Positions 12,085-62,229 of a DNA stretch of 64,000 nucleotides are shown in pieces (position 1 is the first letter of the stretch; every line of letters starts with the position of its first letter). The DNA lies in assembly GCA_963737065.1 (NCBI GenBank), contig CAVTRC010000001.1, forward strand, positions 1,856,001 through 1,920,000, in the 5' to 3' direction. The notes beneath the pieces are model-generated. The model did no database searches. It saw nothing but the letters and a program-made list of their open reading frames with translations, and was not told where the DNA came from. Both the position numbers and the translations under genes were made by a program. Origin of the DNA: Candidatus Eremiobacteria bacterium (lineage in GTDB: Bacteria > Vulcanimicrobiota > Vulcanimicrobiia > Vulcanimicrobiales > Vulcanimicrobiaceae).

Positions 12085-12220
12085 CCGCGCCGGGCTCAGC
12101 GTAAAGGAGCAGGCGACCTAAAGCTAGACGCGATTTTAGCCGTAGACGGAAGAGGACGGCGGCGCGCACGCCCGGGTTTGAGCGCGCTGCAGTACGGTGC
12201 GTCATCCTGAAGGGAGCCTC

Positions 12221-31556: not shown

Positions 31557-32351
31557 TTACGTCATTCGACTCGAGCCGTGAAGCTCGTGTTCGAGCGCCT
31601 GCAGTTCAGCACCGCCGGCCATGAGACGTATCAGGTTCTCCAGCGGAATTTCGGAACGAGCGGCATCGAGTTCCACGCGGCCGAGGGCGAGCACGACGAA
31701 ACGATCGCCCACCAAGTACGCATGGTGTGGGTTGTGGCTAATAAAAATCACGGCCAGTCCTGCGTCGCGCGCGGCAGAGATATATTTCAGGACGACGCCT
31801 GACTGCTTGATGCCGAGCGCCGCCGTCGGCTCATCCAGTATCACAACCCGTGCGCCGAAATAGATCGCTCGCGCAATGGCTATAACTTGCATTTCGCCGC
31901 CGGAGAGTTTGCCGACCGGCGCGTCGATATCCGCGAGATGGATTCCCATCTTCTCGAGTTCCTCGGACGCGATGCGGCGCATTGCCTCGATGTCGAGCCT
32001 GCGAAACGGCCCCCAGCCAGTTGTCAACTCGGAGCCCAGAAAGAAATTTCGCCAGACGGGCATGAGCGCCACGAGCGCGAGATCTTGATAGACGGTCGCG
32101 ATACCGAACGCTTTGGCCTCGCGAGGAGACGACAGACGAACTTCAGCCCCGTCGACGCATAAGACGCCCGTGTCATGCGGATGCAAACCAGAGACGATCT
32201 TGATTAACGTTGATTTCCCTGCGCCGTTGTCTCCAAGGATGCAGGTAACTTCTCCACGCCTCACCGTTAAACTGACGCCATCAAGCGCGCGAACGTTCCC
32301 GTAATATTTGCAGAGATCGGTCAGCTTAACGATTGCGGCCGGCGCGCTCAT
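31557..32351 (-). CDS. Sugar (inositol-type) ABC transporter ATP-binding protein
   Basis: GDNGAGKSTL, LSGGE and LDEPTAALG. Confidence 0.93.
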   Translation of the reverse strand: MSAPAAIVKLTDLCKYYGNVRALDGVSLTVRRGEVTCILGDNGAGKSTLIKIVSGLHPHDTGVLCVDGAEVRLSSPREAKAFGIATVYQDLALVALMPVWRNFFLGSELTTGWGPFRRLDIEAMRRIASEELEKMGIHLADIDAPVGKLSGGEMQVIAIARAIYFGARVVILDEPTAALGIKQSGVVLKYISAARDAGLAVIFISHNPHHAYLVGDRFVVLALGRVELDAARSEIPLENLIRLMAGGAELQALEHELHGSSRMT

Positions 32352-33391
32352 TTGCGGTCCACCTGATAGCGCACGAGCATGTTTACGAGCGTCGCGAGTA
32401 ATAGCATCGCGCCGAGAAAGAATTTAAACCAATCGGGATTCCAACCGGCATACACGACACCTTGGCTCACGACGCCGAAGATCAGCGCGCCTATTGCGGC
32501 GCCGATGACGGAGCCATAGCCACCGGTCAATAGACAACCGCCGACCACGGCGGCCACAATGTATTCCAGTTCGAGGCCCACGCCGCCGCCGGATTGCACG
32601 GTGTTGTAGGCAAACAGCTGATGCATGCCGGCGATCCACGCGCAGAATCCGACGGTCATAAAAAGCGCGACTTTCATTCGCTTGACCGGAACACCGGCCG
32701 CGCGCGCGCTTGCCGCATTACCACCGACCGCAAATACCCAGTTGCCGGCTGTCGTCCTTAGGAGGACCCACGTGCCTAACGCTACAAGGGCGAGCCACCA
32801 TATGATGCTGACGTTTACGTCTACGCCGCCGAACGTAAGCGTCGATGCGAAAAACGCCTTCGCCGAATCAAATCCCGCCATGTTCGAGATGTCGTTCGTA
32901 GCGACGTTCCCGCTTATAAGGCGCGTGATCGCAAGATTTATGCCTTGAAGCATGAGAAACGTCCCGAGCGTTACCAAAAAACTTGGTAAGCCGGTACGAA
33001 TCAGCATCCAGCCATTGAACGCGCCGATGGCGAGGGAAAGCGCCAAGCCGACAGCGACGCCGATCCACACGTTGGCATTGAATTGATACGCGAACATCGA
33101 TGCGCACAAGGCCGAAGTGATAACCGCGACGCCCGCGGAAAGATCGAATTCACCGCCGATCATAAGCAGTGCTACGCCGACCGCCATGATGCCGAGCGTG
33201 CCACTTTGGTAGAGCACGGTGCTGATGGACGCAGGATGGCGAATTGCGGGCGCAGTGATTCCAAAAAAGATAATTACCGCGACGGCTCCGATCAGCGAGC
33301 CGACTTCCGGTCTTGCAAGAAAGGTCCGAACAGCAGAACGGTGAGCTGACCGTTTGCGAAGCGGCGCGGACGGTGCAGCGGTCGAATTCAT
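32348..33391 (-). CDS. Sugar (inositol-type) ABC transporter permease
   Basis: GGEFDLSAG, AVGGNAASARAAGV and VVGGCLLTGGYGS. Confidence 0.93.
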   Translation of the reverse strand: MNSTAAPSAPLRKRSAHRSAVRTFLARPEVGSLIGAVAVIIFFGITAPAIRHPASISTVLYQSGTLGIMAVGVALLMIGGEFDLSAGVAVITSALCASMFAYQFNANVWIGVAVGLALSLAIGAFNGWMLIRTGLPSFLVTLGTFLMLQGINLAITRLISGNVATNDISNMAGFDSAKAFFASTLTFGGVDVNVSIIWWLALVALGTWVLLRTTAGNWVFAVGGNAASARAAGVPVKRMKVALFMTVGFCAWIAGMHQLFAYNTVQSGGGVGLELEYIVAAVVGGCLLTGGYGSVIGAAIGALIFGVVSQGVVYAGWNPDWFKFFLGAMLLLATLVNMLVRYQVDRK

Positions 33392-34347
33392 CGCGTCCCC
33401 TTCTCCGCGAACCGTGCAATCGCGCTGATGTTATGCGAGTCGATGAATGCTGGACCGGTAAGTATCGGTTGGCCGCCACCAATCACGTCGCCGTTGGTTA
33501 CCAACAGCCACAGCGCATCGACCGCTTCGTAGCCCTGTAGGTACGGCTGCTGGTCGATGGCCCAACGGACGCTTCCGTGTTGAATCGCCGCGACGAGTTG
33601 TTTGTTCGTGTCGAACGTGACGATTCTCGCGCCGCTGCGTGCAGCCTGTCCTGCGTCAACTGCAGTAAGCGCGATGGGCGCACCGAGCGTCACAATATAG
33701 TCGATACTCGGGTCCTGTTGAAGCTTCGCGGTAATCGTCGAACGGACGGACGGCATGTCCGCGCCGTTGACGTAAATTTTCTCGCTGCGCCCCTTCGTAA
33801 GACCATCTTGCACGCCCTGGCATCGTGCTTCCAGTTGAACCTGTCCCTGCGATTGAATCACGCAAAGCACATGCCTAGCGCCTTCACGGCTCAACCGCGT
33901 GCCGGCTGCGCGCCCGGCGAGCAGTTCGTCTTGTCCGATGTACATCGGGATGCCGAGCCGCTTCCATGCGCCAAAGCCGGCGTTGAACGCGATAACCGCA
34001 ATGCCCGCGGCTTGTGCGCGCCTGACGGCGCTTCCTAGTGCGTCGGGCGTCGCAAGGGTCAGCGCTATGCCGTCCACATGCTGATCGATCGCATTCTGAA
34101 CGAGCACAGCTTGCCCGTTAGCGTTCTGGTCGTTGGAATAGATAAGATCCACGTTGTCATTCGCAGCTGCCGCTTCCGCGCCGCGCCGGATGATGTCCCA
34201 GAACGTGTCTCCCGGAGGTTGGTGCGTAATCATCGCGATTCTCAGGCGAGGCGCGTTGACCGCGCCACCGGGCCGTCCGCGCGCGCCTCCCGTGCTGCTA
34301 CAACCGAATAACAGCAACAAACAAACCACGGCGGCGACATGTTTCAT
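33388..34347 (-). CDS. Sugar (inositol-type) ABC transporter substrate-binding lipoprotein
   Basis: Lipobox LFGC; DTFWDIIRRGAE and DQQPYLQGY. Confidence 0.92.
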   Translation of the reverse strand: MKHVAAVVCLLLLFGCSSTGGARGRPGGAVNAPRLRIAMITHQPPGDTFWDIIRRGAEAAAANDNVDLIYSNDQNANGQAVLVQNAIDQHVDGIALTLATPDALGSAVRRAQAAGIAVIAFNAGFGAWKRLGIPMYIGQDELLAGRAAGTRLSREGARHVLCVIQSQGQVQLEARCQGVQDGLTKGRSEKIYVNGADMPSVRSTITAKLQQDPSIDYIVTLGAPIALTAVDAGQAARSGARIVTFDTNKQLVAAIQHGSVRWAIDQQPYLQGYEAVDALWLLVTNGDVIGGGQPILTGPAFIDSHNISAIARFAEKGTR

Positions 34348-35420
34348 GTCGCAACGCCCACGTATTTCAGCACGGCGTCTCCAAATTTGCTCGTTGTGAG
34401 CGGTGAGTCGCTTGCGCGCGCAATATCGGACGTTCGCAAACCGTCACACACGACGCGTTCTACTGCGTATTCTATGCGTGATGCGGACGCATCATCGTTC
34501 AGACTGTATCGCAGCAGTAGCGCGGCAGAAAGAATCGCTCCGATTGGATTCGCGATGCCTCGTCCGGCGATGTCCGGAGCCGTGCCGCCGATCGGCTCGT
34601 ACAGTCCGAACGTTCCCCCTTGCGGACCCGCCCGGACGCTCGCGCTCGGCAAGTTGCCGATTGAGCCGCTGAGAATCGCAGCTTCGTCGGATAGAATATC
34701 GCCGAACATGTTTTCTGTAACGATAACGTCGAAATCGCGCGGCCTGCGCACGAGTTGCATCGAAGCGTTATCGACAAGAAGGTGAGTCAATTCGACGCTC
34801 GGATACTCGCGTGCGACTTCGTTGACGACCTCCCGCCAGAGCCGAGACGTCGCCAAGATGTTATATTTGTCGACGGAGGTAACGTGCTTACGCCGTTGCA
34901 TCGCAAGGTCGAAGGCGACCCGTGCAACGCGCTCCACTTCCTCTTCGCTGTATGACATCGTGTCGACCGCGCATCGCTTGCCTGCGGCATCGACTCTGCG
35001 TTCTTTGGGCCTACCGAAATAGATGCCTCCCGTCAGCTCGCGCACGACGATAAGATCCAAACCCTCTACGAGTTCCGTACGAAGGCTTGACGATCGTTCG
35101 AGTCCTGAGTACACGCGCACCGGACGAAGATTCGCGAAGAGTTCGTAATCATAGCGCAATTCGAACAGCGCGGCTTCTGGACGACGCTCGAAGTCAACAC
35201 CATCGAACAGCGGGTCTCCGACAGATCCGAAAAGAATTGCATCGCTACGTCTGCATAGCGCATCGGTGTCGCTCGGAAGTGGCGGAAGCCCCATGCGAAG
35301 CGCGGCCGCACCAACGGGCGCTTCAACACATTCGATGTCCGGGCGCACGCGCTGCAAAACGCGCACAGCCTCCGCCACGATTTCGGGGCCAATTCCATCT
35401 CCGGGCAACACGGCAATCAT
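34344..35420 (-). CDS. 3-isopropylmalate dehydrogenase-family beta-decarboxylating dehydrogenase (LeuB-like; proposed D-malate dehydrogenase)
   Basis: GDGIGPE, FANLRP, RELTGGIYFG, NMFGDILSDEA and APDIAG. Overlaps the transketolase and ABC genes by 4 bp each. Confidence 0.9.
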   Translation of the reverse strand: MIAVLPGDGIGPEIVAEAVRVLQRVRPDIECVEAPVGAAALRMGLPPLPSDTDALCRRSDAILFGSVGDPLFDGVDFERRPEAALFELRYDYELFANLRPVRVYSGLERSSSLRTELVEGLDLIVVRELTGGIYFGRPKERRVDAAGKRCAVDTMSYSEEEVERVARVAFDLAMQRRKHVTSVDKYNILATSRLWREVVNEVAREYPSVELTHLLVDNASMQLVRRPRDFDVIVTENMFGDILSDEAAILSGSIGNLPSASVRAGPQGGTFGLYEPIGGTAPDIAGRGIANPIGAILSAALLLRYSLNDDASASRIEYAVERVVCDGLRTSDIARASDSPLTTSKFGDAVLKYVGVAT

Positions 35421-36346
35421 ACGGTAGCGACCATATTCCGCACGCGTTGCGCGATGTGTTCGGCACTGAGGCCGTACTTGCGCAACAATTCATCATTAGG
35501 ACCGCTCTCGCCGTCGACGTCCATCAATCCGATACGCTCGATATGTGCCGGATAACGCTCGGCGAGCACCTCGGCTACGGCACCTCCGAGTCCGCCGTAT
35601 ATCGAGTGCTCCTCGCACGTGAGCAATCGCGGGATTGAGCGCGCGAATCGCACGACGGCTTCGGCATCGAGGGGTTTGATCGTCGGAACGTGCAGCACGG
35701 CAACGTGCACGCCTTCCTGCGAGAGCATTTCCGCCGCTTGAAGCGAGCGCACCGTCTGCCCGCCGGTTGCAATGATCCCCACGTCGCGGCCTTCCCGCAG
35801 CACACGGGTCCGGCCGATCGAGAAACCGTCATGTGGATTTGTCGCCGACGCAACCGGGTCGCGTAACAAGCGCATGTAGACCGGGCCATCATACGCTGTC
35901 GCTGCGACAATAGCTGCGCGCGCCTCGTGCGCGTCACACGGAGCTACGACCAGCATATGCGGTAGACTTCGCATGATTGCTATGTCGTTTACCACTTGAT
36001 GTGTCTTACCAGTGTATCCGGTTAAAATGCCGCTGTAGTGCGCCGCCAGCTTCACATTTAGGCGCGGCTGCGCCACGACGACGCGAACCTGATCCAGATC
36101 TCGTGTCGCCAAGAACGCTGCGAAGGAGCTAACCCACGGAATGAGTCCAGCCGTTGCCATTCCAGCCGCCACGCCAATCAGATTTTGTTCGGCGATCCCA
36201 AGCATGTAGAACGATTCGGGCGCGCGTAAGGCGACTTGGTCGGCCTTGGTGGAGTTCGCGAGATCGCCGTCTAGCACTACGACCCGCCGATCGGTCTTAC
36301 ATAGATCGACCAGTGTATTTCCGAACACGTCGCGCTGCGCGTTCAT
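35417..36346 (-). CDS. Transketolase, C-terminal subunit (pyrimidine-binding + C domain)
   Basis: GIAEQNL, THQ, GPVYMRL, TIKPLD and EEHSIYGGLG. Confidence 0.93.
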   Translation of the reverse strand: MNAQRDVFGNTLVDLCKTDRRVVVLDGDLANSTKADQVALRAPESFYMLGIAEQNLIGVAAGMATAGLIPWVSSFAAFLATRDLDQVRVVVAQPRLNVKLAAHYSGILTGYTGKTHQVVNDIAIMRSLPHMLVVAPCDAHEARAAIVAATAYDGPVYMRLLRDPVASATNPHDGFSIGRTRVLREGRDVGIIATGGQTVRSLQAAEMLSQEGVHVAVLHVPTIKPLDAEAVVRFARSIPRLLTCEEHSIYGGLGGAVAEVLAERYPAHIERIGLMDVDGESGPNDELLRKYGLSAEHIAQRVRNMVATV

Positions 36347-37176
36347 GTCAGCTCGGCCAACGCGCGCGACACTTCGTCGGCCGACAGCGGCCGCGAGTGC
36401 CACGTGAGGTCATTCTCCATGAAGGAGACGCCTTTGCCCTTGACCGTCGATGCGATGATCATCGAAGGTAAGCCGCGTTGCGATGACGCGCGTTTGCAGG
36501 CATCGACGAACGCGTCAATATCGTGCCCGTCGCATTCAATGACGTTCCAGCCGAACGCTTCCCATTTCGAGCGCGGATTCGGCGCCGGATCGCGTCGCAC
36601 CATCGAAGCATATCCCTCGTCCGTCGCCCAGCCGTACTGCTGCAGGCGATTCCAGTCGAGAATTGCTGTCAAGTTGTCCAGACTGTAGCGAGCTGCTGTA
36701 AACGCCGCTTCCCACACTTGTCCTTCTTGTGTTTCACCGTCTCCGAGCATGACCCACGTTCGATAGCCTTTGCCCAAACGGCGGCCGGCAAGCGCCATTC
36801 CAATGCCGGGCGACAGCCCTTGACCGAGCGATCCCGTCGACATATCGAGCCCCGGAAGCTTGCTCATGTCAGGATGGCCTTGCAGACGTGAGTCGATCGC
36901 ATCGAACGTTTCAAGCTCGACAACCGGAAAGTAACCGCGCAGTGCAAGCGTTGCATACAAGCCAATAGCACAGTGGCCTTTTGAAAGAATGAATCGATCG
37001 CGATCGGGGCCGTAGGGCTGTGCTGGATCGATATTAAGTACGTCGAAGTACAGCGCCGCAAGCATGTCGGCTGCTGAAAGCGCGCCGCCGATATGACCTG
37101 CGCCGGCGAAATGCACGGCCTGCAAGACCTCGCGTCGTATCCGGTTGCCGATATCCTGGAGCGTTTGCGCATTCAT
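36343..37176 (-). CDS. Transketolase, N-terminal ThDP-binding subunit
   Basis: GHIGG, DRFILSKGH, LQGHP, STGSLGQG, GDGETQEGQVWEA...DWN and TVKGKGV. Confidence 0.94.
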   Translation of the reverse strand: MNAQTLQDIGNRIRREVLQAVHFAGAGHIGGALSAADMLAALYFDVLNIDPAQPYGPDRDRFILSKGHCAIGLYATLALRGYFPVVELETFDAIDSRLQGHPDMSKLPGLDMSTGSLGQGLSPGIGMALAGRRLGKGYRTWVMLGDGETQEGQVWEAAFTAARYSLDNLTAILDWNRLQQYGWATDEGYASMVRRDPAPNPRSKWEAFGWNVIECDGHDIDAFVDACKRASSQRGLPSMIIASTVKGKGVSFMENDLTWHSRPLSADEVSRALAELT

Positions 37177-38051
37177 AATTGAAACCGCTCGCGCAGGTAC
37201 TCGCGGTTCGCTTTGGCGCAGGCGAACGGTTCGCGCGGTGCATCTTGCTCTACTATGATCCAGCCATCATAATGAGCCTCGCGGAGCGCGTCGACGATGC
37301 TGGGAATCGATACGACGCCCGTTCCCAATTCGACGAACATCCCAATACGGACGGCTTCAACGAAATCAAGACGCTCGCTCCGAACGCGTTCCAGCGTCGC
37401 GCCGTCGATGTCTTTGAGATGCACGTACCCGATTCGCGTTCGATAGTCGCTGAAAAGTTGCTCGGGATCCGAGCCGCCGTACGCGATATGGCCGGTGTCC
37501 GGGCATAGCATGAGGAGTGCAGGATCGGTGAGCTCGCACAATCGGTCGATTTCCTCGCGCGTTTCGACGTACGTGCCGACGTGCGGATGAAAAACGGCAC
37601 TCATCCCACGCTGCTGCAACGCGTCGCCGATGCGGTGTAACCCTTCGGCCATCGTCCGCCAAGCGCGCTCGCCCAGCATATCGTCGCGGCGGGCGCGCCC
37701 GGCGACGCGAATGCGTTCTGGTGATACTTCATCGGAAAGGATCAATACATGCGAGCCGACGCTCTGCAAACGGTCGGCGACGCGTATGCTGCTCGCTAAC
37801 GCGGCTTCATGATTTGCTTCGTCACGCACGTTAACCGCATGAAACGATGCAGCCGGCGCGAGATCGCGGGCGCGCAGCTCGCGTGCAATTGCGTGTGAGT
37901 CGTTTGGGAAATTATAGCTGATTTCCGTGCCTTCGTACCCGGCCTGCGCCATTTCGTCGAGCATCTGCTCGAAGCTCGGCGTACGGACCCACGTGTAGAG
38001 TGGATCAAAGCCCCAGTTCACGGAAGCAGTCCCAATGCGCATCGTGTTCAC
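37173..38051 (-). CDS. iolE: myo-inosose-2 dehydratase (IolE family TIM barrel)
   Basis: IGTASVNWG, FHPHVGTYVET, DTGH, HLKD and VEQD; inositol gene context. Confidence 0.78.
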   Translation of the reverse strand: MNTMRIGTASVNWGFDPLYTWVRTPSFEQMLDEMAQAGYEGTEISYNFPNDSHAIARELRARDLAPAASFHAVNVRDEANHEAALASSIRVADRLQSVGSHVLILSDEVSPERIRVAGRARRDDMLGERAWRTMAEGLHRIGDALQQRGMSAVFHPHVGTYVETREEIDRLCELTDPALLMLCPDTGHIAYGGSDPEQLFSDYRTRIGYVHLKDIDGATLERVRSERLDFVEAVRIGMFVELGTGVVSIPSIVDALREAHYDGWIIVEQDAPREPFACAKANREYLRERFQL

Positions 38052-38857
38052 CACGCCCACCCTTGTCGAATCCATTCATGCTGCGGATCAAACGTCATGT
38101 GATAGATGTGTTTGGGGCCGGCCAAGACATTCAAATAGTAAATGGCATATTCAGGAGCCGCTGCACAAACGTGATATCCGCGCGGAACGAGGACGATGTC
38201 GCGGTCGCGCGCAGCAATCGTCTCGTCGACGTCGCCTTCCGCCGTGTACACGCGCTGAAACGCAAAACCACACTCAGGTCGCGCTCGATAATAGTACAAT
38301 TCTTCGAGTGCCGATTCGTGCGGCGGATCGTCCTTGTCGTGCTTGTGTGGCGGATAGCTGGACCAATGTCCAGGTGGTGTGAGAACCTCTGTGATAAAGA
38401 GCGTTGATGCCGCCTCTGGGTCCATCAAAATGTCGTAGATGCGGCGCGATGCATTTCCCGTTCCACGATCGTGGGCGTCGGTTTCGTTCAGCGCAATCAG
38501 CCGTGCTGCGTGCGTGCCGCGCGCTTGTGCCGAGCAGATCGCGATCTCGCAGTCGCCACGCGCGCTCAACTTGTACGCCGTTGTTTGCGGAAGATACACG
38601 GCTTGTGGAGGGCCGTCGAACGGAGAGCGCCGTTCGCCGACGCGCTGCCAAGATGCGTGATCGCTCGTCACGTCGGCGGTTCCCTCGATAAACACGAGAA
38701 CCGCTTCATTGCCGCCCGTTTCCGCGGAGTATGAGCTGCCCTTCGCGAGCCGGACGATTTTAAAGTCTATGTACTTCCAGTCGTCGCCGTGTGGTGCGAC
38801 GGAGGCGATGACTCGGTCATCCGTACCGCGGGATCGCACGAGGAGGCTGCTTGTCAC
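38048..38857 (-). CDS. iolB: 5-deoxy-glucuronate isomerase
   Basis: EVLTPPGHWSSYPPHKHD, LEELYYYR, FQRVY, VPRGYH and YYLNVLAGP. Confidence 0.93.
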   Translation of the reverse strand: MTSSLLVRSRGTDDRVIASVAPHGDDWKYIDFKIVRLAKGSSYSAETGGNEAVLVFIEGTADVTSDHASWQRVGERRSPFDGPPQAVYLPQTTAYKLSARGDCEIAICSAQARGTHAARLIALNETDAHDRGTGNASRRIYDILMDPEAASTLFITEVLTPPGHWSSYPPHKHDKDDPPHESALEELYYYRARPECGFAFQRVYTAEGDVDETIAARDRDIVLVPRGYHVCAAAPEYAIYYLNVLAGPKHIYHMTFDPQHEWIRQGWAW

Positions 38858-38860
38858 CGT

Positions 38861-39877: not shown

Positions 39878-41685
39878 TACGTCAGCGCCTCTTGCGTGCG
39901 CGCAGCTTCATACTCGGCGCGCTTTTCACCGTGGTAAGCGGGAACCGTGACGTCCCACCATCCGGTCGTCGTGAGTCCGCTCTCGGGCAACTCGCGGCTG
40001 CACAATGCTTCGACGACCGCTGGACGCTCCGACGCGAAGGCACGCCGCAGCGCATCTGCGAGCTGCGCCGGTTCCTCAACGCGCTCTGCATGGCAGCCGA
40101 AACCTTCCGCAATCTGCGCTAGATTAGCGGAGAACGGGCTGCCGTCGCGCTTCTTGAAGTTCGTTGCGATAACGCGATCTGGGCCAAACTGCAACGTCTG
40201 CAAATTCTTGATGCACTCCCAGCCGTAGTTATTCATTACGAGGAAGACGGCCGGTACATCGTATTGCGCAGCCATCGCCAATTCCTGAACCGTCTGCAGA
40301 AAGCTGCCGTCGCCGACGATTGCGAGCACTTGCCGGTTCGGCGCCGCCAGTTTGGCACCGATTGCACCTGGCACCTCAAAGCCCATCGCCGAAAATCCGC
40401 CCGGCGTGATGTGCTGACGGCTTCCGTACACGGGAAACTCGGTGAATACTTGGCTTTGCGGATTGCCTGCGCCGGTAACTACAATCCCGTCGCGTTCGAG
40501 AACCTGCCGCGCGACAACAAGCGCTCGGGAGATCGTCATCGGATTGGCGTTGCTCTCTCGCATCGGTCGCAACGCTTCTTGCCACTCGTTCTTCAGGCTC
40601 TGAATGCGCTCGAAATACGCAGTAGAGCGGTACGCCCGCGGAGCCGACAACTCGTGCAGCGACGACAGCAAATCGTCGAGCGTGGCGCGTGCATCACCGA
40701 CGATGCCGACTTCTACCGGATAGTTCTTGCCGATCTCATACGGGTCGAGATCGATTTGTATGAGTTTTGTCGGTGGAATGTTGAAGGTGATCCCGCGCCT
40801 AAATGAAGATGTGGTGCGGTCCGTGAACCGGCAGCCGACCGCGAGCACGACGTCAGCTTCGCGCGCTAGCGTGTTGCCGGAAATCGAGCCGAGGTCGCCG
40901 CAGGGCCAAGCATACAGATCGTGGTCCTCGGGTATCGCGCCTTTTCCCATCCATGTAACCGTCACGGGGGCGCCTAGAAACTCCGCCAGTAGCCGCAGCG
41001 CCGGCTCGGCGCTCGACGAGATCACGCCGCCGCCCGCCAAAATCATGGGACGCTCTGCGCTCAACAGCAGCTGTGCCGCCTCCTCCACCGCCTTTGGATC
41101 GCCGTGCGAACGGCCGCGCGGGCGGCGTGCGACGGGATCCGGGAGTGCGTCGATCTCTGCGAATTCGGCTTGCACATCCATTGGGATATCGATGTGTGCG
41201 GGCCCACGCCGCCCCTCGAGCATGACGTTGAACGCAAGATGCAATACGTTGGGCAGCTGATCTACTCGACTGGGCTGCCACCACCGTTTGACGATGGGCT
41301 CCATCAGCCGCGGAAAGTTGGCCCAGTGCGTGCGTTCGAGTTCTTGCAGCACGCCGCGTCCGCGCATGTACGTGTGAACCGAACCGGTGAGAAGAAGCAA
41401 CGGCATCGAATCGACGTAGGCGCACGCCACGCCCATTGCGGTATTTACTGCACCCGGCCCGATGGACGTGAAAACGCCGCACGGTTTAGCGGCGACGCGG
41501 TAATACGCGTCCGCCATGTGCGCTGCGCCTTGCTCGTGAATCGCTTGGATTACCGCGATATCATCGCGCCTGTCGACGAATGCATCGAGGAGTGCGGTAA
41601 TGCCGTGACCGGGAACGCCAAACACCATCGGCACGCCTTCTCGGATGAGATATTCTGCGACGATTTGCCCCCCGGTCATTCGCAT
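39877..41685 (-). CDS. iolD: ThDP-dependent enzyme, IolD-like trihydroxycyclohexanedione acylhydrolase
   Basis: PGHG, HEQGAAHMA, TSIGPGAVN, VLQELE and GDGSF...MNN ThDP motif; first enzyme gene of the iol operon. Confidence 0.72.
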   Translation of the reverse strand: MRMTGGQIVAEYLIREGVPMVFGVPGHGITALLDAFVDRRDDIAVIQAIHEQGAAHMADAYYRVAAKPCGVFTSIGPGAVNTAMGVACAYVDSMPLLLLTGSVHTYMRGRGVLQELERTHWANFPRLMEPIVKRWWQPSRVDQLPNVLHLAFNVMLEGRRGPAHIDIPMDVQAEFAEIDALPDPVARRPRGRSHGDPKAVEEAAQLLLSAERPMILAGGGVISSSAEPALRLLAEFLGAPVTVTWMGKGAIPEDHDLYAWPCGDLGSISGNTLAREADVVLAVGCRFTDRTTSSFRRGITFNIPPTKLIQIDLDPYEIGKNYPVEVGIVGDARATLDDLLSSLHELSAPRAYRSTAYFERIQSLKNEWQEALRPMRESNANPMTISRALVVARQVLERDGIVVTGAGNPQSQVFTEFPVYGSRQHITPGGFSAMGFEVPGAIGAKLAAPNRQVLAIVGDGSFLQTVQELAMAAQYDVPAVFLVMNNYGWECIKNLQTLQFGPDRVIATNFKKRDGSPFSANLAQIAEGFGCHAERVEEPAQLADALRRAFASERPAVVEALCSRELPESGLTTTGWWDVTVPAYHGEKRAEYEAARTQEALT

Positions 41686-41700
41686 CTGTCGTCTACCTCT

Positions 41701-42489
41701 CTATGTAAGCGCGCCGGCCGCGGCCTGGACGTATCCGAGTTGCGCGGAGATGGTTTGTGCCGCAGCGCAAATGCAAAGCGCGACGTCGGGGATGCGGTCG
41801 CGCGTGAGGCGTACGGCGGGCGAAGAGATTCCAAACGACGCGATCACAAGGCCGGTGTGGTCCCTCACGGGCGCGGCGATGCAGCGAACACCGGGATGCA
41901 GCTCCTCTTCATCGACGGCGTACCCGACGCGACGCACGCGCGCTAAGTCTTTGTCCAACTCGTCGACGCTCGTCATGGTATGCGGCGTAAACCGCCTCAG
42001 CGGGGACGTCCCAAGGAGTTCGACTAATTGAACGTATGTGAAGTCGGTAAGCAGCGCTTTGCCGATCGCCGTACAGTACAGCGGTTCCGCGGTGCCGATC
42101 GTAGTCTCTACGCGCAAAATGCCCGTAGCAGATTGCGCTGCGACGGAGACTGCAGATTGCCGTTCGCGAACCGCAACATGCGTGTTTTCGCCCGTCTCGA
42201 GAGCAATCTCTCGCAAATGCGACTGCGCTATCTCCACGACGCTGAGCCGGCGCAGCAGGGCTGACGCAATCTCCAGGATGCCGTATCCGACGGAATACTT
42301 TTTCGTCTCGCTATGCTGCATGGCGAACCCGTGAGTTTCTAAGGTCGCAAGCAGCCGGTACGCGGTGCTCGGATCGACGTTCAGCCGTTCCGCAATTTCG
42401 GTGACGCCGGCACCTGCCGGCTGCTCGGCGAGCAAACGCAAGATGTTCAAGCCTCGTGACAACGAGTTGATGAGAGTGGGACCAGCCAT
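41701..42489 (-). CDS. IclR family transcriptional regulator
   Basis: SLSRGLNIL..GVTEIAERLNVDPSTAYRLLATL, CTAIGKALL and GYAVDEEELHPGVRCIAAPV. Confidence 0.94.
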   Translation of the reverse strand: MAGPTLINSLSRGLNILRLLAEQPAGAGVTEIAERLNVDPSTAYRLLATLETHGFAMQHSETKKYSVGYGILEIASALLRRLSVVEIAQSHLREIALETGENTHVAVRERQSAVSVAAQSATGILRVETTIGTAEPLYCTAIGKALLTDFTYVQLVELLGTSPLRRFTPHTMTSVDELDKDLARVRRVGYAVDEEELHPGVRCIAAPVRDHTGLVIASFGISSPAVRLTRDRIPDVALCICAAAQTISAQLGYVQAAAGALT

Positions 42490-42492
42490 TCT

Positions 42493-42601
42493 TTCAATGT
42501 GGCATCTTATTGCACTATCGTCAAGGAGCGCTCTCATACGAAGCTAGGTCTCTCGATAATTATGCAAGGCCATTGACAATTTTGCAATTGCATGGGTGAA
42601 T
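42493..42601. promoter_or_regulatory. AT-rich divergent promoter region with palindromes (candidate IclR operators)
   Basis: TTGACA at 42573, palindrome TGCAATTGCA at 42583-92, ATAATTAT at 42556-63, and TTCAAT-N10-ATTGCA at 42493-514. Confidence 0.45.
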
Positions 42602-42639
42602 GATTCCCGTAGCCCGCTTCCAGGGCGGAGGTACGACTG

Positions 42640-45345
42640 ATGGACACTTGCAGCAGAATCTGCTCGCGTACCGCTCTTCTCGCGATCTTTTTCGTTGCGC
42701 CGGCGCTGATTTGCGCGCCGGTCAGCGCGCAGACGGCAAACTCGCCCGTCAGCGCGCAGACGCCAAACTCGCCCAAATATACGATAAGCGGCACGGTCGT
42801 TGACCAGCAGAGCTCCTTGCCGATTTCCGACGCTCGTCTAACGCTCGTCGAAGGAAACGCAACGATCGCTACAACGCGCTCGGATATATCCGGCGCGTTC
42901 AAGTTCCCCGCGGTTTCCCCGGCACTATACAACATTCTCATCACTGCCGCGGGACATGAGAGCGGGCGTTCTGACGATATTGCGCTCGCGGGCGGTCCCG
43001 CGACCGTTTCGCTCGTACTCGCACCAAGTACGACGGCGAATACCGGAAACTCACTCAAAACGATCGCACACGTCACGACTCGTGCGGGCGGCCTACAAAC
43101 CACGACGACGATTCAGCAGCAAATCGACCCGAACATTATCCAAAACCAAGGGAACCTGCGCGTGGCGGAATCCCTCGGCAAATTGCCGGGCGTAAACATG
43201 GTGGGGTCGGACTCGGCAATCGGCGACGACATTTCGGTCGACATTCGCGGATTAAAGCCTAGTGAGACGCAAGTATTGCTTGACGGGCATCCGATCGGAC
43301 CGATCGGTGTGTATCCTGCGCGCATCGGCGGCGGAACCGGCGGCTACGACTATCAGGTTTCACCGACCTTCGCGCTGCAGAACATTCAAGTCGTGTATGG
43401 TTCCGGTGCTACGGGACTGTACGGCGTCGATGCGGTAGGCGGCGCGGTCGATTTCCAGACGCTGAACCCGTCACTTCGCCCATCAGGCACGCTGAAGATC
43501 GGTACAGGGATGCTCGGTAAACAACTTTCGGCCGTGCAGACAGCGGGCACGTCGGGGAAGTTTGCCTGGGTTCTGCTGCACGGCGTCACCGGTGCTTACG
43601 GTAATTTCCCTGGCGCTGTTATTCCGCAAACCGGCCTTCGGGGGACGGACTTTACGTCTGCGACATACAGCGGCGTCACGTACTGGGTTGGCGGCGACTA
43701 CGTTCTGCGCAACGATCTCGGCAAGATACAGTATGCGTTCTCACCTGCCACCACGCTAAGTTTTACCGGATATTCAGCCACGTCGCGCGACGATAAGACG
43801 GGCGAAGGTGACAACGACTTCATCACGCCGGACTATGCGACCTATCAAGCGCAGCAGAACACAAACTGCAGCACGCCTTCCGGTGTAGCGGGTATTAAGG
43901 TTATGGTCGACTCCGGGAGCGCGTGCTACACGCCGCAACAGTATGGGCAAGGCGCGAGCGGACCAGCGGGCGGCGGCCCTGGCGCCTTTCAAGCCCTGGC
44001 GAATCAAGATTACCATGCGCGACTGACTACAAGCGCGGGTCGTAATCAAATCGTGCTGGATTCGTACATTGACAACTACAGCCAGAACCGCGAACGCCCG
44101 GAGTCGTTTGTCAACGGTCCGCTGTCGATATTGAACGTGACGTATCGTTCGATCGGCTCACTGCTTAGCGACGACATCGCCTTTTCAAAGAACGACGTGG
44201 GATTCGGCGCGTTCTCAATGCGTCAGTATACGAACGGCCAAAATATCAGCGGCACAAACGTGATCCCGCATGCTCCGATATTCGATAAACTGGACAGCTT
44301 CTTCGTGCGCGACGTATACGAGCCGGGCGGCCACTTATCGTTTTTCTTGAATTCGTGGCTGAAACACTCGAACGTCGGCGGCAATTCGTTCGATCCTCGT
44401 TTGTCGATCATATACCGGCCGACGTTGTCGGACGTATTTCGACTCACCGGGGGGAAATCGTCCGCGGATCCGGCCCCGCTCGCTCCACAGCTGACCGGTA
44501 TCGGAGGCATCACTCCGGGCAACTGCAAGCTAATTTCTGTAGGCGAAGCGCAGTCTCCGAACGAACTGCCCGAACGCGCAAGCGACCTAGAAGCATCATA
44601 CGCGCACCATTTCACGGCGGATACCAACATACAGTTGGTTGCGTATGATACGAATGAAATAAACACGATTTTCCAAGGACAAGAACCCGCCGCCGACTTC
44701 CTGGACTTCATAAATCAGGCCGGCGCGAACTACCTGCCTAGCGTGTTTGCGAAGATAACACAGCTTTGTCCTAGCTTCCAACCGCCGAATCCCGGCCCGA
44801 CGATCGCGAATCTCGTCGTCAACACCAATTTGAACCTCGCTCGTGAGCGCGCTCGCGGACTGGAGTTGAGCGGCCGCATGCGAATCACCCCGCATCTCGC
44901 AATCGACGGCTACTATGATCTGCAGTCTGCCATGATTTTCGACGCGCCTCAATCCCTCTTGACCAGTAACGTGACGCTGATAAACGGCTCGCAACTTCCG
45001 GAGATTCCGCTTCATAAGTTCGGACTCGCAGTCGACATTACGAACACTCATGGCGCAGAAATCTATATTGACTACACGCATCTCGATAGTAACAACTCGT
45101 TCAATCGCCCCGCCTTCGGATGGGCCGACGCAATGTTGACGCAGAGCGTATCCAAGCAATTGTCCTTGAATCTCGGCATCACTAACGTGTTCAATTCTGC
45201 AGTCGACAACTACGGACGGATCGGCTGGGGAGTATACGTACCGGAAAATGAATACGGAACAGATGCAAACGCTCTCGCGCAAGGGACAGAGCGCTTCGGT
45301 CTTTTGCCGACGGCCGTAACGTTTTCGCTGACTGAAAAATTCTGA
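42640..45345 (+). CDS. TonB-dependent receptor with N-terminal carboxypeptidase-regulatory-like domain
   Basis: Signal peptide; ISGTVVD domain; plug (LGKLPGV, IRG, VLLDGHP, YGVDAVGGAVDF); GITNVFN; terminal F. Confidence 0.9.
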   Translation: MDTCSRICSRTALLAIFFVAPALICAPVSAQTANSPVSAQTPNSPKYTISGTVVDQQSSLPISDARLTLVEGNATIATTRSDISGAFKFPAVSPALYNILITAAGHESGRSDDIALAGGPATVSLVLAPSTTANTGNSLKTIAHVTTRAGGLQTTTTIQQQIDPNIIQNQGNLRVAESLGKLPGVNMVGSDSAIGDDISVDIRGLKPSETQVLLDGHPIGPIGVYPARIGGGTGGYDYQVSPTFALQNIQVVYGSGATGLYGVDAVGGAVDFQTLNPSLRPSGTLKIGTGMLGKQLSAVQTAGTSGKFAWVLLHGVTGAYGNFPGAVIPQTGLRGTDFTSATYSGVTYWVGGDYVLRNDLGKIQYAFSPATTLSFTGYSATSRDDKTGEGDNDFITPDYATYQAQQNTNCSTPSGVAGIKVMVDSGSACYTPQQYGQGASGPAGGGPGAFQALANQDYHARLTTSAGRNQIVLDSYIDNYSQNRERPESFVNGPLSILNVTYRSIGSLLSDDIAFSKNDVGFGAFSMRQYTNGQNISGTNVIPHAPIFDKLDSFFVRDVYEPGGHLSFFLNSWLKHSNVGGNSFDPRLSIIYRPTLSDVFRLTGGKSSADPAPLAPQLTGIGGITPGNCKLISVGEAQSPNELPERASDLEASYAHHFTADTNIQLVAYDTNEINTIFQGQEPAADFLDFINQAGANYLPSVFAKITQLCPSFQPPNPGPTIANLVVNTNLNLARERARGLELSGRMRITPHLAIDGYYDLQSAMIFDAPQSLLTSNVTLINGSQLPEIPLHKFGLAVDITNTHGAEIYIDYTHLDSNNSFNRPAFGWADAMLTQSVSKQLSLNLGITNVFNSAVDNYGRIGWGVYVPENEYGTDANALAQGTERFGLLPTAVTFSLTEKF
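42718..42771 (+). repeat. 27-bp tandem duplication (PVSAQTANS/PVSAQTPNS)
   Basis: Two near-identical 27-nt units at the signal peptide cleavage region. Confidence 0.8.
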
Positions 45346-47040
45346 TGCGATGGGTGTACGTCTCGCTGGCCGCGACGCTCAGCGTCGCGGCCGCCTTCCT
45401 TTTCCCGCCAAGCGCGACACCGTCGCCGAACCCCGCGCAGGTCACGCTCGTTCGCCAACGCATCAAACACGTTTTTATCATCTACCAAGAAAACGAGTCG
45501 TTTGACCATTACTTCGGCAGCTACCCGGGTGCCGACAACCTTGCAACGATATCGGCTGCGTTTCATGGCTTCCGTCAGTACGATCCAATCGCGCGCGCGT
45601 GGACGACGCCGTTTCGGATAACGGATCCGGACGTCGAAAGCCCGGATCATTCGAGACGCGCACTTATCGCTAAAATGCACGGTGGGAAAATGGACCGGTA
45701 CGTCGCGGTTCAGGAACAATCATCGGCGAAAGATGGCTATACGTCGGCAGATCAGGAGCGGCTGGGACAGACTCACGATGTCCTATTACGACTGCGACAC
45801 GATACCGTTTTTATGGAAATACGCTCGCGCATTCACGCTTTGGGATCACTTCTTTCAAGCCATGACCGCGCCGTCCACGCCTGGCAACATCGAAGTAATC
45901 GCTGCGCAGAGCGGACAGACGCAAGCCGCTCGCGATTCACACCTTGTCGTTGCAAAGGACGGCTCGGGTGCCGGCGTGCCAGTCGAAAACAGCATGGATC
46001 CTCCGTTTGGTCCGTATCCGGGACCCGCTCCGGCTAAAACACAGATCGTGCAGCGGTATGCCACGGTGATGCTCACGCTCAACGGCCGCGACAATGTTAA
46101 AGCACGCGTCGACCTGCGCGGCGTTCGCGAAGACGTGCACGAGCTTGCCGAAAGTGGAAGAATGTCCGTTCCGTGGGGATGGTATCAGGAAGGATACAAC
46201 GGTCCCGAACGACGAGCACTAAAAGGATACTCGGCGCACCACAACGCGTTGCAGTACTTTGCGTACTTGCGGCATAATGACGTCTTTTGGAATCACGTGT
46301 ATCCGTTAAAGGATCTATTGCGCGCAGTGCGCGGCGGCACGTTGCCGCATCGCGGCGCTTTTTACATCAAAGGTGGAAACCTTAACCGCTTCGGATGGCG
46401 CCCTGCAAACCGTTCGCCGTTCATCCAGCGCAACTTTCTCGGCGACGATGACCATCCGGGAACAGGCGACTCGGATCGACAAGTTGCCGAGTCGTTCGTG
46501 GCTACGTTTGTTAACGCTGTTGCGCGAAGCCGGTACTGGAATGATTCGGCTATTATTATTACGTGGGACGATTCCGGTGGGTTTTTCGACCACGCTCCGT
46601 CCCCGAGTTTCGAACGTTGCTGGGACGGCTATCCATGTGGCGACGGTCCACGAGTGCCGCTCATCGTGATTTCACCGTTCGCGCGGTCGCATGCGGTTGT
46701 TCACGACAGCGCGGACACTGCATCAGTCGTGCGCTTTCTCGAAACAGTGTTCAGTCTTTCCCCGCTCGCAACGCTCCCGAACGAGCGGCGCTTCATGCCG
46801 GAGGGGCCGCGCGACACAAACGCGCGCTTATCTAACTTATTGTCAGCGTTCGATCGGGAACGCCTTACGGCGAAACGACCGGCTATTCCAGCGGCGGCGG
46901 CGATCGTACCTGATGCGGTTGTCGATCGTTTCCCGGCAGCGATGAATTGCAGCAGCCTCGGCATACGGCCACAGCGCATCCCCGGCAGGAATACGCCACC
47001 GGCTGGTTTCCATGGCCTGCCGAAGCAATTGCTCCCATAA
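45345..47040 (+). CDS. Exported phosphoesterase (phospholipase C / acid phosphatase AcpA family), frameshift near 45768
   Basis: IKHVFIIYQENESFDHYFG in the first frame; LWDHFFQA, DDHPG, ITWDDSGGFFDH and GPRVPLIVISPFA in the second. Confidence 0.85.
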
Positions 47041-47054
47041 CGAGGACCTACTTC

Positions 47055-48446
47055 ATGAGCACCATCGCTTCGGCGAACGTGATCACGACCGTAAACCCTG
47101 CAACTGGGTCACCTCTTTCCGAATACGAGGTCAACGGGGCAGCCGAGATCGATAAGCGGCTCGACGCCGCGCATGACGCGTTCATGGAATGGCGAAATAC
47201 TCCAATGGAGACGCGTCAAGCGCTGTTGCAGGCCCTGGCCGCGCATTTCCGCGCAAAGCGTTCGGAATACGGGCGGTTGATCACCCTTGAGATGGGAAAG
47301 GCGATCATCGAATCGGAAGCCGAAATTGAGAAATGCGCCTGGGCCTGCGAATACTATGCGGCGAACGCGCCGACGCAGGTTGCACCCGAAGCTATCTCAA
47401 CGGCGGCCGTTCGCAGTTATTCCGCATACCGCCCGCTGGGCGTAGTCCTTGCGATTATGCCGTGGAATTTTCCGTTCTTCCAAGTCGTTCGGTTTGCCGT
47501 TCCGGCTATCGCAGTGGGAAACGCCGCGGTGTTAAAGCACGCCGCCAATGTAACGGGCTGCGCCTTGGCGCTCCAGCAAGCATTTGAATATGCCGGCTTT
47601 CCTCGTCGGCTTTTCACCACTCTCGTCATTCGGGCGAATCAAGTCGCATCGATCATCGCCGACCAGCGGATTGCAGCCGTAACGTTTACGGGAAGCGACG
47701 GCGCGGGATCCGACGTTGCGGCGGTAGCGGGTAAGCACGTAAAAAAGAGCGTCCTCGAGCTTGGCGGATCCGACGCATTTATCGTTCTCGCGGACGCGGA
47801 TGTGGAGACGGCGGCGAAGACCGCCGTGCGCGCGCGTTTTCAAAATTGCGGGCAAAGCTGTATCGCGGCGAAGCGCTTCATCGTCCATGACTCGGTACAC
47901 GAGTCGTTCTGCGAGCGATTCGTTCACTACGCGCGGGAGATCGTGGTTGGCGATCCACTGGAACGCGCCACAACAATGGGCCCGCTAGCGCGACCTGATT
48001 TGGTCGACGAGTTGCAGCGGCAAGTTTCCGTGTCTCTGTCGCTCGGTGCAACGGCCGTCCTTGGCGGTACGCGTATACCTGGCGCGGGCGCGTTTTACGA
48101 GCCCACCATTCTGAAAGGCGTTCTGCCGGATATGCCCGTTTCCCGGGAAGAGACGTTCGGTCCGGCTGCGGCGGTCCTTAAAGCACGCGATGAAAACGAG
48201 GCGGTTGATCTGGCCAATGCATCGGTATTCGGATTAGGAAATAGCGTTTGGAGTCGCGATCTCGACCGCGCCGAGCGGATCGCCGCGCGCTTGCAATCCG
48301 GCCTGGTCTTCGTCAACAGCATGACCGCGTCCGACCCGCGTTTGCCGTTCGGCGGAGTGAAGCGCAGCGGCTATGGGCGCGAGCTCGCGCAGTTCGGCAT
48401 ACGCGAATTTGCAAATGTACAAACCGTTTCCGTCGCCGGCTCATAA
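47055..48446 (+). CDS. NAD(P)-dependent aldehyde dehydrogenase, Sad/succinate-semialdehyde dehydrogenase type
   Basis: IMPWNFPF, LKHA, FTGS, LELGGSD, NCGQSCIAAKRF, EETFGP and PFGGVKRSGYGREL. Confidence 0.92.
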   Translation: MSTIASANVITTVNPATGSPLSEYEVNGAAEIDKRLDAAHDAFMEWRNTPMETRQALLQALAAHFRAKRSEYGRLITLEMGKAIIESEAEIEKCAWACEYYAANAPTQVAPEAISTAAVRSYSAYRPLGVVLAIMPWNFPFFQVVRFAVPAIAVGNAAVLKHAANVTGCALALQQAFEYAGFPRRLFTTLVIRANQVASIIADQRIAAVTFTGSDGAGSDVAAVAGKHVKKSVLELGGSDAFIVLADADVETAAKTAVRARFQNCGQSCIAAKRFIVHDSVHESFCERFVHYAREIVVGDPLERATTMGPLARPDLVDELQRQVSVSLSLGATAVLGGTRIPGAGAFYEPTILKGVLPDMPVSREETFGPAAAVLKARDENEAVDLANASVFGLGNSVWSRDLDRAERIAARLQSGLVFVNSMTASDPRLPFGGVKRSGYGRELAQFGIREFANVQTVSVAGS

Positions 48447-60303: not shown

Positions 60304-60915
60304 TCAGCAACTGAGATAACCGTTGCGGTTGTTGATTGGGTTTCCTTGACAGCGGTTGACGTCGAGCGTCGAGTAAATCCGGTTGCCGTTAGGCGCGGTG
60401 CACGACGCCGAGAGCGTCGATCCGTTCATACGTGCATTCACGCAGCTTTGTTGATACGATCCGCCCGGCAGGCCGTATCCGTAGTTCCCGCCGTTGTAAC
60501 GCCCGTTGTTGTATCCGGACTGATCATTGCCGTTCCAGTGACGATGATGGTGGTGATCGTCGTTGTCGTTGTCATTGTCTCGATCGCGGTCACGTCCGTA
60601 TCCGTTGCCGTTGTTATAGCCGTTACCGTTGTTATAGCCGTTGTTGTAACCGTTGCCGTTGCAGTTCAGACGGCCGTTGATATTGGCAATGTCGCCGCGG
60701 CAGCCGTTCACGTTCAGTGACGAATAGATGCGCTGCCCGTTCGCTGCAGTGCACGACGCTGAGAGGGTGCCCCCGCGCATACGGAGATTGTTGCAGCTTT
60801 GTTGATACGAGCCGGGCGGCACGTTGTTATAGCCGTACTGCTGCGCGCTCGCCGTGACGATTGAGCCTGCGGCTAAGCCGATCGCAAGCGCGAGGCCGGT
60901 CATGGTTCGGTGCAT
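60304..60915 (-). CDS. Secreted protein with two cyanovirin-N-like (CVNH-type) repeats
   Basis: Signal peptide; two copies of [40 protein letters not shown]...NxNGxLxC. Confidence 0.75.
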
Positions 60916-61005
60916 TGCTCACCTCTGGGTAGAGTGCTGTTAGTTGCGAGGCTCCACATCCGAAACGAGGCTCACCATGCGAAAGTTCCCGTTCGCTCCA
61001 GCGTC

Positions 61006-62174: not shown

Positions 62175-62229
62175 CGCACCGTCATTCGACGCGCATGGAC
62201 GTCGTCCGTCAATTGCGAAGAGGACAGAG

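Follow-up and report, generated by a model that had tools for sequence, protein, structure and literature searches.

A split transketolase in inositol gene clusters of Eremiobacterota and other bacteria: a candidate catabolic route without the IolC kinase

The canonical catabolism of myo-inositol, known from Bacillus subtilis and Salmonella, runs through IolG, IolE, IolD, IolB, IolC, IolJ and IolA. Thermotoga maritima uses another route with IolM, IolN and IolO, in which a second oxidation and a hydrolysis lead to 5-keto-L-gluconate and both IolC and IolJ are bypassed. In the sulfo-transketolase pathway of sulfoquinovose and in the transketolase-dependent pathways of apiose, a split transketolase replaces a kinase/aldolase pair for an unusual sugar. 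Here we describe an operon of a Candidatus Eremiobacteria bacterium (assembly GCA_963737065.1, contig CAVTRC010000001.1) in which the two genes of a split transketolase, tktN and tktC, and a gene for a LeuB-type dehydrogenase stand among iol-like genes. The whole stretch of DNA analysed, called the window below, comprises 64 kb (positions 1,856,001 to 1,920,000 of the contig). The locus has in common with the canonical pathway an IolB and, in IolG-like and IolE-like form, the other two upper enzymes, a presumed ring opening dependent on thiamine diphosphate (ThDP) and a similar arrangement of transporter and regulator. It differs in that IolC, IolJ and IolA are absent from the 64 kb, that the ThDP enzyme is not a canonical IolD, and that the split transketolase and the LeuB-type dehydrogenase lie inside the operon. 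The bypass of IolC and IolJ proposed for this locus is also a feature of the T. maritima route, but the latter has neither the IolE/IolB deoxy route nor a transketolase. As in the sulfoquinovose and apiose pathways, a C2 unit would be sent into pentose-phosphate metabolism; the donor there is a sulfonate or a branched ketose, whereas the donor proposed here is a carboxylate ketose.

Judged from the sequence, the operon is best explained as a variant catabolic pathway for myo-inositol or a close cyclitol. In the route that we propose, IolG, IolE, a non-canonical ThDP-dependent ring-opening enzyme and IolB would yield 2-deoxy-5-keto-D-gluconate (DKG). The split transketolase would then take unphosphorylated DKG as ketol donor, replacing both the phosphorylation by IolC and the aldol cleavage by IolJ. 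Carbons C6-C5 of DKG would be passed to an aldose phosphate, giving a pentose, hexose or heptose phosphate, and (R)-3-hydroxy-4-oxobutanoate (malic semialdehyde) would be released. An aldehyde dehydrogenase of the succinate semialdehyde dehydrogenase (SSADH) type, either the neighbouring one or a housekeeping enzyme, would oxidize malic semialdehyde to D-malate, from which the LeuB-type paralogue would form pyruvate and CO2 by oxidative decarboxylation. Our substrate assignments are all inferred, as are the part of the ThDP enzyme as an IolD and the choice of aldehyde dehydrogenase, and we regard the kinase-free route in this full form as somewhat probable. Its general feature, a transketolase in place of the kinase/aldolase pair together with an oxidative decarboxylation of the D-malate type, is well supported by independent genomic evidence. 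The stereochemistry asserted in a preliminary description of the locus, which had put forward this route, was re-derived by hand with the same result. Viewed from the ketol end, the C3' hydroxyl of DKG is on the left and the C4' hydroxyl on the right, which is the D-threo arrangement needed in a transketolase donor. What remains after cleavage is OHC-CHOH-CH2-COO-, and the configuration of its hydroxyl gives D-(R)-malate on oxidation.

The lower steps can be compared with two described systems. In the degradation of L-carnitine by Acinetobacter baumannii, according to the available part of the report, malic semialdehyde is converted enantiospecifically to D-malate by an SSADH-like aldehyde dehydrogenase (PDB 8S33), and D-malate to pyruvate and CO2 by a decarboxylating dehydrogenase orthologous to DmlA (PMC11353897). 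The intermediates are those proposed here and the superfamilies are the same (SSADH-like aldehyde dehydrogenase and Iso_dh dehydrogenase), but the semialdehyde arises there from carnitine monooxygenase and here, as proposed, from transketolase cleavage of DKG. The window enzymes also differ from those of A. baumannii, the aldehyde dehydrogenase being Sad/YneI-like and the other dehydrogenase of the LeuB type and not an orthologue of DmlA. For an engineered E. coli TktA (R358I/H461S/R520Q), the available part of another paper describes cleavage of C4-C5 of 5-keto-D-gluconate to tartaric semialdehyde (PMC12016104), for which a housekeeping SSADH was proposed in E. coli (Salusjarvi 2004, as cited in PMC12016104). 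Both this enzyme and the one proposed here would cleave an unphosphorylated 5-keto-aldonate between C4 and C5, with an SSADH-type oxidation of the C4 semialdehyde to follow, and residue 461 is altered in both. The window enzyme, however, is a natural one, would act on a 2-deoxy substrate, keeps R358 and R520, and has D469 changed as well. No description of a transketolase linked to inositol or DKG catabolism was found in the full text of 8.1 million PMC papers and 0.36 million bioRxiv preprints, a collection that leaves subscription journals and supplements outside.

The window transketolase has the Transketolase_N, Transket_pyr and Transketolase_C domains distributed over two adjacent genes, and the best PDB match of TktC is the split transketolase of C. 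hydrogenoformans (6YAJ, 281 bits). TktN keeps His26, His66, His100 and His261 in the numbering of E. coli K-12 TktA, which is used throughout. TktC keeps R358, S385, H473 and R520 and carries the changes H461Y, E468Y, D469T and P471K. Loci were sampled by aligning 24 TktN relatives with the window protein and then scanning one genome per species, and the TktC proteins of 79 loci were aligned and set against TktA. They comprised 37 canonical sequences with His461 and Glu468-Asp469, 39 sequences of a second kind, here called class B, with Tyr461, a variable residue 468, Thr469 (rarely Ser or Ala) and mostly Lys471, and three that belong to neither. In 13 window and locus sequences compared with TktA (10 class B and three canonical), His26, His66, His100, His261, Arg358, Asp381, Ser385, His473 and Arg520 were all kept. 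Class B formed one clade of the tree, with a support of 99. The window and all nine loci in which the transketolase is linked to iol genes have the class-B type, so that 9/39 class-B loci and 0/37 canonical loci are iol-linked (Fisher p = 0.002, with kinship ignored). An aromatic residue at position 468 was seen in six of the nine iol-linked class-B loci and in one of the 30 others. As an iol signature this residue was rejected and is kept as a lead, for the six loci represent two clades only and there is an exception, L017, which has a lactonase, an aminotransferase, a peptide-type transporter and no iol genes.

The nine iol-linked loci were found among 80 examined, by tblastn with the window proteins and by Pfam and NCBIfam scans of the open reading frames (ORFs) of each locus; they have the split transketolase among iolB, iolD and iolG genes and come from several phyla. 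Three of them (L001, L002 and L009) match the window exactly in the gene order IclR, ThDP enzyme, IolG, IolB, IolE, TktN, TktC, LeuB-like, at 53-80% identity. These are metagenome-assembled genomes, two labelled Eremiobacterota and the third labelled 'proteobacterium' but standing with them on the tree. Their identities to the window proteins are 58-62% for IclR, 80% for the ThDP enzyme, 66-68% for the LeuB-like protein and 49-57% for the relatives of the TonB receptor; the ABC transporter is divergent upstream in them, with the TonB receptor beyond. The other six loci have different gene orders. In Paenibacillus validus NBRC 15382 (L008) the order is aldehyde dehydrogenase, IolG, IolD, TktN, TktC, IolB, a TIM-barrel protein, ABC transporter, IolG, LacI; in a member of the Chloroflexi (L021) it is IolB, transaldolase/fructose-6-phosphate aldolase (FSA), IolD, IolE, TktN, TktC, IolG, ABC transporter; in a member of the Thermaceae (L028) it is ABC transporter, IolD, IolE, Iso_dh, TktN, TktC, IolG, IolB, DeoR; and in a member of the Sphaerobacteraceae (L034), where the contig ends upstream, it is IolE, TktN, TktC, IolG, IolB, IolD. 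A Microbacterium locus (L057) has iol genes, IclR and two tandem transketolase pairs, and a locus of the Chloroflexota (L037) has the split transketolase and iol genes together with an IolC-like PfkB kinase and a DeoC/LacD aldolase. IolB, the enzyme that forms the ketose required by a transketolase, was found in the window and in all nine loci. The IolDs of L008 and L028, the two loci tested, are canonical, scoring 997 and 914 bits where the cut-off is 715. Within the available locus DNA, which includes 10-kb flanks, neither a PfkB kinase nor an aldolase was found in eight of the nine loci, L037 being the only one with the kinase, and none of the nine yielded a class II aldolase. The association of transketolase with iol genes, predicted in the preliminary description, was therefore met again in other genomes, with the leuB-like gene kept in L001, L002 and L009. 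The accompanying prediction, that such clusters should avoid iolC, agrees with eight loci and has its counter-example in L037.

The dehydrogenase provides further evidence. By tblastn, Iso_dh genes were found within 10 kb in 7/39 class-B loci (L001, L002, L009, L028, L011, L016 and L042) and in 0/37 canonical loci. In L028 the Iso_dh protein, whose gene stands between those of IolE and TktN, belongs to the tartrate/D-malate type (TIGR02089, 502 against a cut-off of 470), and its best PDB match is the tartrate dehydrogenase/decarboxylase of Pseudomonas putida (3FLK, 359 bits). The presence of two Iso_dh subfamilies in equivalent positions of iol-transketolase clusters would be expected if their shared substrate has a D-malate core, and the D-malate step of the preliminary description thereby obtains independent support from the Thermaceae cluster. 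The best 120 homologues of the window protein, 66-80% identical to it, fall into two groups by a loop motif: G1, with 51 members, which includes the window protein, and G2, with 69. On contigs of at least 10 kb, 22/23 members of G1 lie on a contig as long as one that carries a relative of TktN or of the ThDP enzyme, as against 0/35 of G2, among the matches listed and with length as a proxy for contig identity (Fisher p = 4e-15). This difference argues that the operon enzyme is a dedicated paralogue and not the ordinary LeuB of the phylum. No leu genes were found in the 64-kb window. We infer that the window protein is a decarboxylating D-malate dehydrogenase. A loop motif 'ALF', where canonical LeuBs have 'GLL', was considered as an iol-specific signature and rejected, being present in 118 of the best 120 homologues, including those of the non-cluster group G2.

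Class-B transketolases also occur apart from iol genes, in other clusters for the catabolism of sugars or sugar acids, with lactonases, GFO/SDR dehydrogenases, enolase-superfamily dehydratases and tripartite ATP-independent periplasmic (TRAP) or ABC transporters; pentose-phosphate genes were beside none of the non-iol class-B transketolases examined. Two such clusters, of Psychrobacillus (L011:2646-15040) and Lysinibacillus (L016:2627-13900), contain a TRAP transporter, a LacI regulator, two zinc-dependent alcohol dehydrogenases resembling idonate 5-dehydrogenase, a kinase of the PPi-phosphofructokinase family, the class-B split transketolase and an aldehyde dehydrogenase of the SSADH subfamily (640 and 666 against a cut-off of 646). 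Their Iso_dh enzyme passes the model of tartrate dehydrogenase (593 and 616 bits, cut-off 501) and also TIGR02089 (542 in L011 and 577 in L016, cut-off 470.4). These clusters look like the same lower module acting on a source of 5-keto-aldonate, and are candidates for a natural route through a semialdehyde to tartrate or D-malate. They strengthen the reading of class-B transketolases as enzymes that cleave carboxylate ketoses. A wider proposal, which we offer tentatively and hold with less conviction than the route itself, is that class-B split transketolases are a large unrecognised class whose special substrates are unphosphorylated 5-keto-aldonates. They might form a portable, ATP-free lower module with an aldehyde dehydrogenase of the SSADH type and an Iso_dh decarboxylating dehydrogenase, recruited on at least four occasions for inositol catabolism and separately for a catabolism of the idonate/5-ketogluconate type in Bacillaceae, to which the window lineage would have added a new ThDP ring-opening enzyme that is not an IolD.

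Several results weigh against the proposed route, and the first of them bear on its last two steps. The dehydrogenase encoded in the operon passes the LeuB model (table) and fails that for the tartrate/D-malate type (TIGR02089, 222.4 against 470.4), so that the enzyme of the LeuB/tartrate/DmlA kind assumed in the preliminary description is, by equivalog models, a LeuB and not a DmlA. Its best PDB matches are isopropylmalate dehydrogenases (3u1h, 396 bits), with 3FLK at 161 bits. As for the aldehyde dehydrogenase, no such gene was found within 10 kb of the cluster in any of the three closest loci (L001, L002 and L009); only L008 and the window have one in the cluster, and these two proteins share 32% identity. 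The enzyme of L008 is of the SSADH/lactaldehyde type, and the model for methylmalonate semialdehyde dehydrogenase (IolA) was not among its 25 best. The Pfam match of the window protein starts at residue 44, and the gene probably begins near 47070. The protein scores best with NF006915 among the NCBIfam models (539.5, cut-off 730) and with E. coli Sad in the PDB (8qmq, 435 bits); the malic semialdehyde dehydrogenase of A. baumannii (8S33) follows with 281 bits at rank 11, the nearer matches being SSADHs of the Sad type. In the A. baumannii enzyme the substrate residues are Arg166, Arg284 and Ser447. The preliminary description had counted the aldehyde dehydrogenase as a part of the pathway, which its lack of conservation with the cluster does not bear out; this step is for that reason the weakest link, and the window protein is a weakly linked candidate for a malic semialdehyde dehydrogenase. 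A housekeeping SSADH could serve in its place.

Other results of this kind concern what the transketolase replaces. In L037 it is paired with an IolC-like kinase (258, cut-off 300) and with the DeoC/LacD aldolase, and because this locus holds both, the transketolase is not strictly an alternative to the kinase. The iol-linked transketolases do not form one clade, at least four changes of label being forced on the tree; recruitment to iol clusters therefore happened repeatedly. The 80 loci, each taken with 10-kb flanks, were the best of at least 599 matching stretches, and the genome could carry iolC and iolJ at another place. The lack of a phosphorylating step in the window could then be explained by a canonical pathway whose iolC, iolJ and iolA are located elsewhere, with the transketolase and the LeuB-like enzyme forming a side branch for another cyclitol, for salvage of by-products or for rebalancing of the pentose-phosphate pool. 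The pairing in L037 fits this explanation. So does a figure in the available part of a 2022 survey of 193,757 genomes: of 1,024 genomes with three clustered core genes, 810 had the fourth at a distance of over 10 kb (PMC9430895). The survey takes iolB, iolC, iolD and iolE as the core and, where the fourth is missing, puts this down to frameshifts or incomplete assemblies. The term 'alternative pathway' does not occur in its text, and the full-text search showed no occurrence of 'transketolase' in it (PMC9430895). A side branch agrees less well with the eight of nine loci that have neither kinase nor aldolase in the available locus DNA, or with transketolase genes placed inside iol operons, with overlaps of 4 nt in the window. 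In addition, DKG 6-phosphate has no free hydroxyl at C1 on the ketol side and, with this hydroxyl blocked, cannot, by the accepted chemistry of transketolases, be a donor once IolC has acted. We consider the side branch unlikely.

The results on the ThDP enzyme question the upper part of the proposed route. Although described at first as IolD, this protein fails the NCBIfam IolD model (TIGR04377, 332.4 against a cut-off of 715) and shares 28-30% identity with the canonical IolDs found at other loci, so that it is not a canonical IolD. Acetolactate-synthase models score above IolD (393 bits), and no model reached its cut-off. The best solved relatives are BbmA (best PDB match, 245 bits), acetolactate synthases and glyoxylate carboligase, with cyclohexane-1,2-dione hydrolase at 197 bits; the PDB search singled out neither IolD nor cyclohexanedione hydrolase. 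A search of plasmids with the ThDP enzyme gave 39 records (a search with TktC gave three), and the two inspected of the three closest were both in non-iol contexts. Relatives on Rhizobium/Ensifer plasmids, 58-60% identical, directly follow a gene for a hisD-like dehydrogenase and have one for a GMC oxidoreductase close by; no iol genes were found beside them at the two plasmid loci (L081:8570-11788 and L082:8619-11788). Given the failed model, the low identity and the non-IolD relatives in the PDB, the function of ring opening is presumed from the position of the gene only. The substrate may accordingly be something other than myo-inositol and the intermediate something other than DKG, perhaps another keto-acid or cyclitol derivative supplied through the TonB receptor and the phosphoesterase (from an inositol phosphate or a lipid head group), with another C4 acid for the LeuB-like enzyme. 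Besides the ThDP enzyme, IolG and IolE are under their cut-offs, IolG slightly and IolE clearly, yet with IolE as the best model over the full length; the IolE of L028, which adjoins a canonical IolD, scores just 228.5 against the same cut-off of 290. Such a substrate would also agree with the frequency of class-B transketolases in other sugar and sugar-acid clusters and with the Psychrobacillus and Lysinibacillus loci, where the same lower enzymes occur without iol genes. It is opposed by the IolB, which passes its equivalog cut-off, by six other transketolase loci with fully canonical iol sets, and by the ABC binding protein, whose nearest model is the solute-binding protein for rhizopine, an inositol derivative (165, cut-off 420). 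We judge another substrate to be more doubtful still than the side branch.

That tktN, tktC and leuB are the housekeeping pentose-phosphate transketolase and the dehydrogenase of leucine biosynthesis, brought into the operon by chance, would suit the LeuB equivalog match, the public name 3-isopropylmalate dehydrogenase carried by relatives of the LeuB-like protein and the 64-81% identity of the transketolase to relatives across phyla, but is very improbable given the same insertion kept in four genomes, a transketolase without His461 and Asp469 whose relatives lie in catabolic and not in pentose-phosphate clusters, a second LeuB-like group (G2) in the same phylum that never shares the cluster contigs among the matches listed, and the other Iso_dh subfamily at the equivalent place in L028. 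The kinase-free transketolase route thus remains the reading that we prefer, and the preliminary interpretation as a whole is partly supported.

Some neighbouring features of the related loci were also observed. In L021 a gene of the transaldolase/FSA family (3880-4911) stands directly after IolB, which is consistent with a pathway that delivers sugar phosphates or recycles those from the transketolase. The two tandem split-transketolase pairs beside the iol genes of L057 lie at 9965-13693, and in P. validus a second transketolase pair (L008:1-1869) is located about 8 kb upstream. An aminotransferase of the DegT/DnrJ type lies between IolD and the IolC-like kinase in L037 (2778-4016) and may indicate aminocyclitol metabolism.

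The features of the window are collected in the table. Gene order, strands and coordinates of the operon and of the divergent arm match those given in the preliminary description. Non-overlapping ORFs of the window (n = 53, namely 20 and the other 33 of at least 90 amino acids) were scanned, and among them no PfkB kinase, class II aldolase or second Aldedh protein was found, in keeping with the absence of iolC, iolJ and iolA/mmsA reported before for the locus. Eleven minus-strand genes run head to tail from 42537 to 31557. From IclR to the ATPase their junctions, taken from the coordinates of the longest ORFs, are +15, -1, +3, -28, -4, -61, -4, -4, -4 and -4 nt, a span of -61 to +15 nt from which the coupling is truly tight. 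A scan for promoters and terminators gave 10 and 10 against 7.0 and 20.4 in shuffled sequence, without an excess over this background, and no operon boundaries were set by it.

Table. Features of the inositol-transketolase cluster and its flank, in window coordinates
Feature	Coordinates	Strand	Evidence
IclR-family regulator, first gene of the operon	41701-42537	-	Pfam IclR_C 4.3e-42, HTH_IclR 1.8e-17
ThDP enzyme, acetolactate-synthase-like superfamily	39877-41685	-	all three TPP_enzyme domains
IolG-like inositol 2-dehydrogenase	38861-39877	-	GFO_IDH_MocA domains; TIGR04380 352.1, cut-off 355
IolB, 5-deoxy-glucuronate isomerase (makes the ketose DKG)	38048-38857	-	KduI/IolB 4.9e-91; TIGR04378 301.1, cut-off 205
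IolE-like inosose dehydratase	37173-38075	-	AP_endonuc_2; TIGR04379 213.7, cut-off 290
TktN, split transketolase, N-terminal (ThDP-binding) subunit	36343-37176	-	Transketolase_N 1.6e-50
TktC, split transketolase, C-terminal (Pyr + C) subunit	35417-36403	-	Transket_pyr and Transketolase_C
LeuB-type beta-decarboxylating dehydrogenase	34344-35420	-	TIGR00169 439.8, cut-off 353.2
ABC binding protein, sugar-type	33388-34347	-	Peripla_BP_4
ABC permease	32348-33391	-	BPD_transp_2
ABC ATPase	31557-32351	-	ABC_tran
TonB-dependent outer-membrane receptor, divergent from the operon	42640-45345	+	Plug and CarboxypepD_reg
Phosphoesterase PF04185 (phospholipase C / acid phosphatase family), one frameshift	45345-47040	+	two ORFs, each a part-match
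SSADH-type aldehyde dehydrogenase	46947-48446	+	Aldedh 1.2e-134
Hopanoid gene hpnJ, beyond the aldehyde dehydrogenase	48601-50067

With 264 amino acids and only one nucleotide-binding domain, the ABC ATPase matches no more than the first half of the models for sugar ABC ATPases of about 500 amino acids; relatives 54-55% identical to it belong to the iol clusters of L021 and L028. In the divergent arm the order TonB receptor, phosphoesterase, aldehyde dehydrogenase was as described before, but the phosphoesterase is not intact. Residues 16-185 of its intact 631-aa relative, which adjoins the cluster in L002, correspond to 45366-45842 and residues 160-625 to 45763-47025 in another frame, which puts the frameshift between about 45763 and 45842. 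In concert with the TonB receptor, the phosphoesterase may set inositol free from its phosphorylated or lipid-bound forms. Just past the stop codon of the receptor and within the 5' part of the phosphoesterase ORF, a GC-rich hairpin of 12 bp precedes a T-rich run (45367-45393), a structure that could be a terminator or an attenuator, or simply an Ala-rich stretch coding for a signal peptide. Elsewhere in the window a gene for an FMN-dependent dehydrogenase is apparently split (60827-61654 and 61863-62552), and an ORF for a gamma-glutamyltranspeptidase (55229-56425) covers only positions 2-285 of the 512 of its profile. With such split and partial ORFs, several genes of the window give the impression of being damaged, whether through sequencing errors or because they are pseudogenes.

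In soil and gut, phytate and lipids make inositol a major source of carbon, and in genome surveys its use is judged by whether iolC is present. If the proposed route is true, one ATP would be saved per inositol, and the yield would be pyruvate and a C2 unit in sugar phosphates instead of dihydroxyacetone phosphate and acetyl-CoA. There would be natural transketolases for carboxylate ketoses, a property that is now engineered by mutating the same residues. Culturable carriers of the cluster exist, for example Paenibacillus validus NBRC 15382, and metabolic predictions would change for Eremiobacterota, Chloroflexota, Thermaceae, Paenibacillus and Microbacterium.

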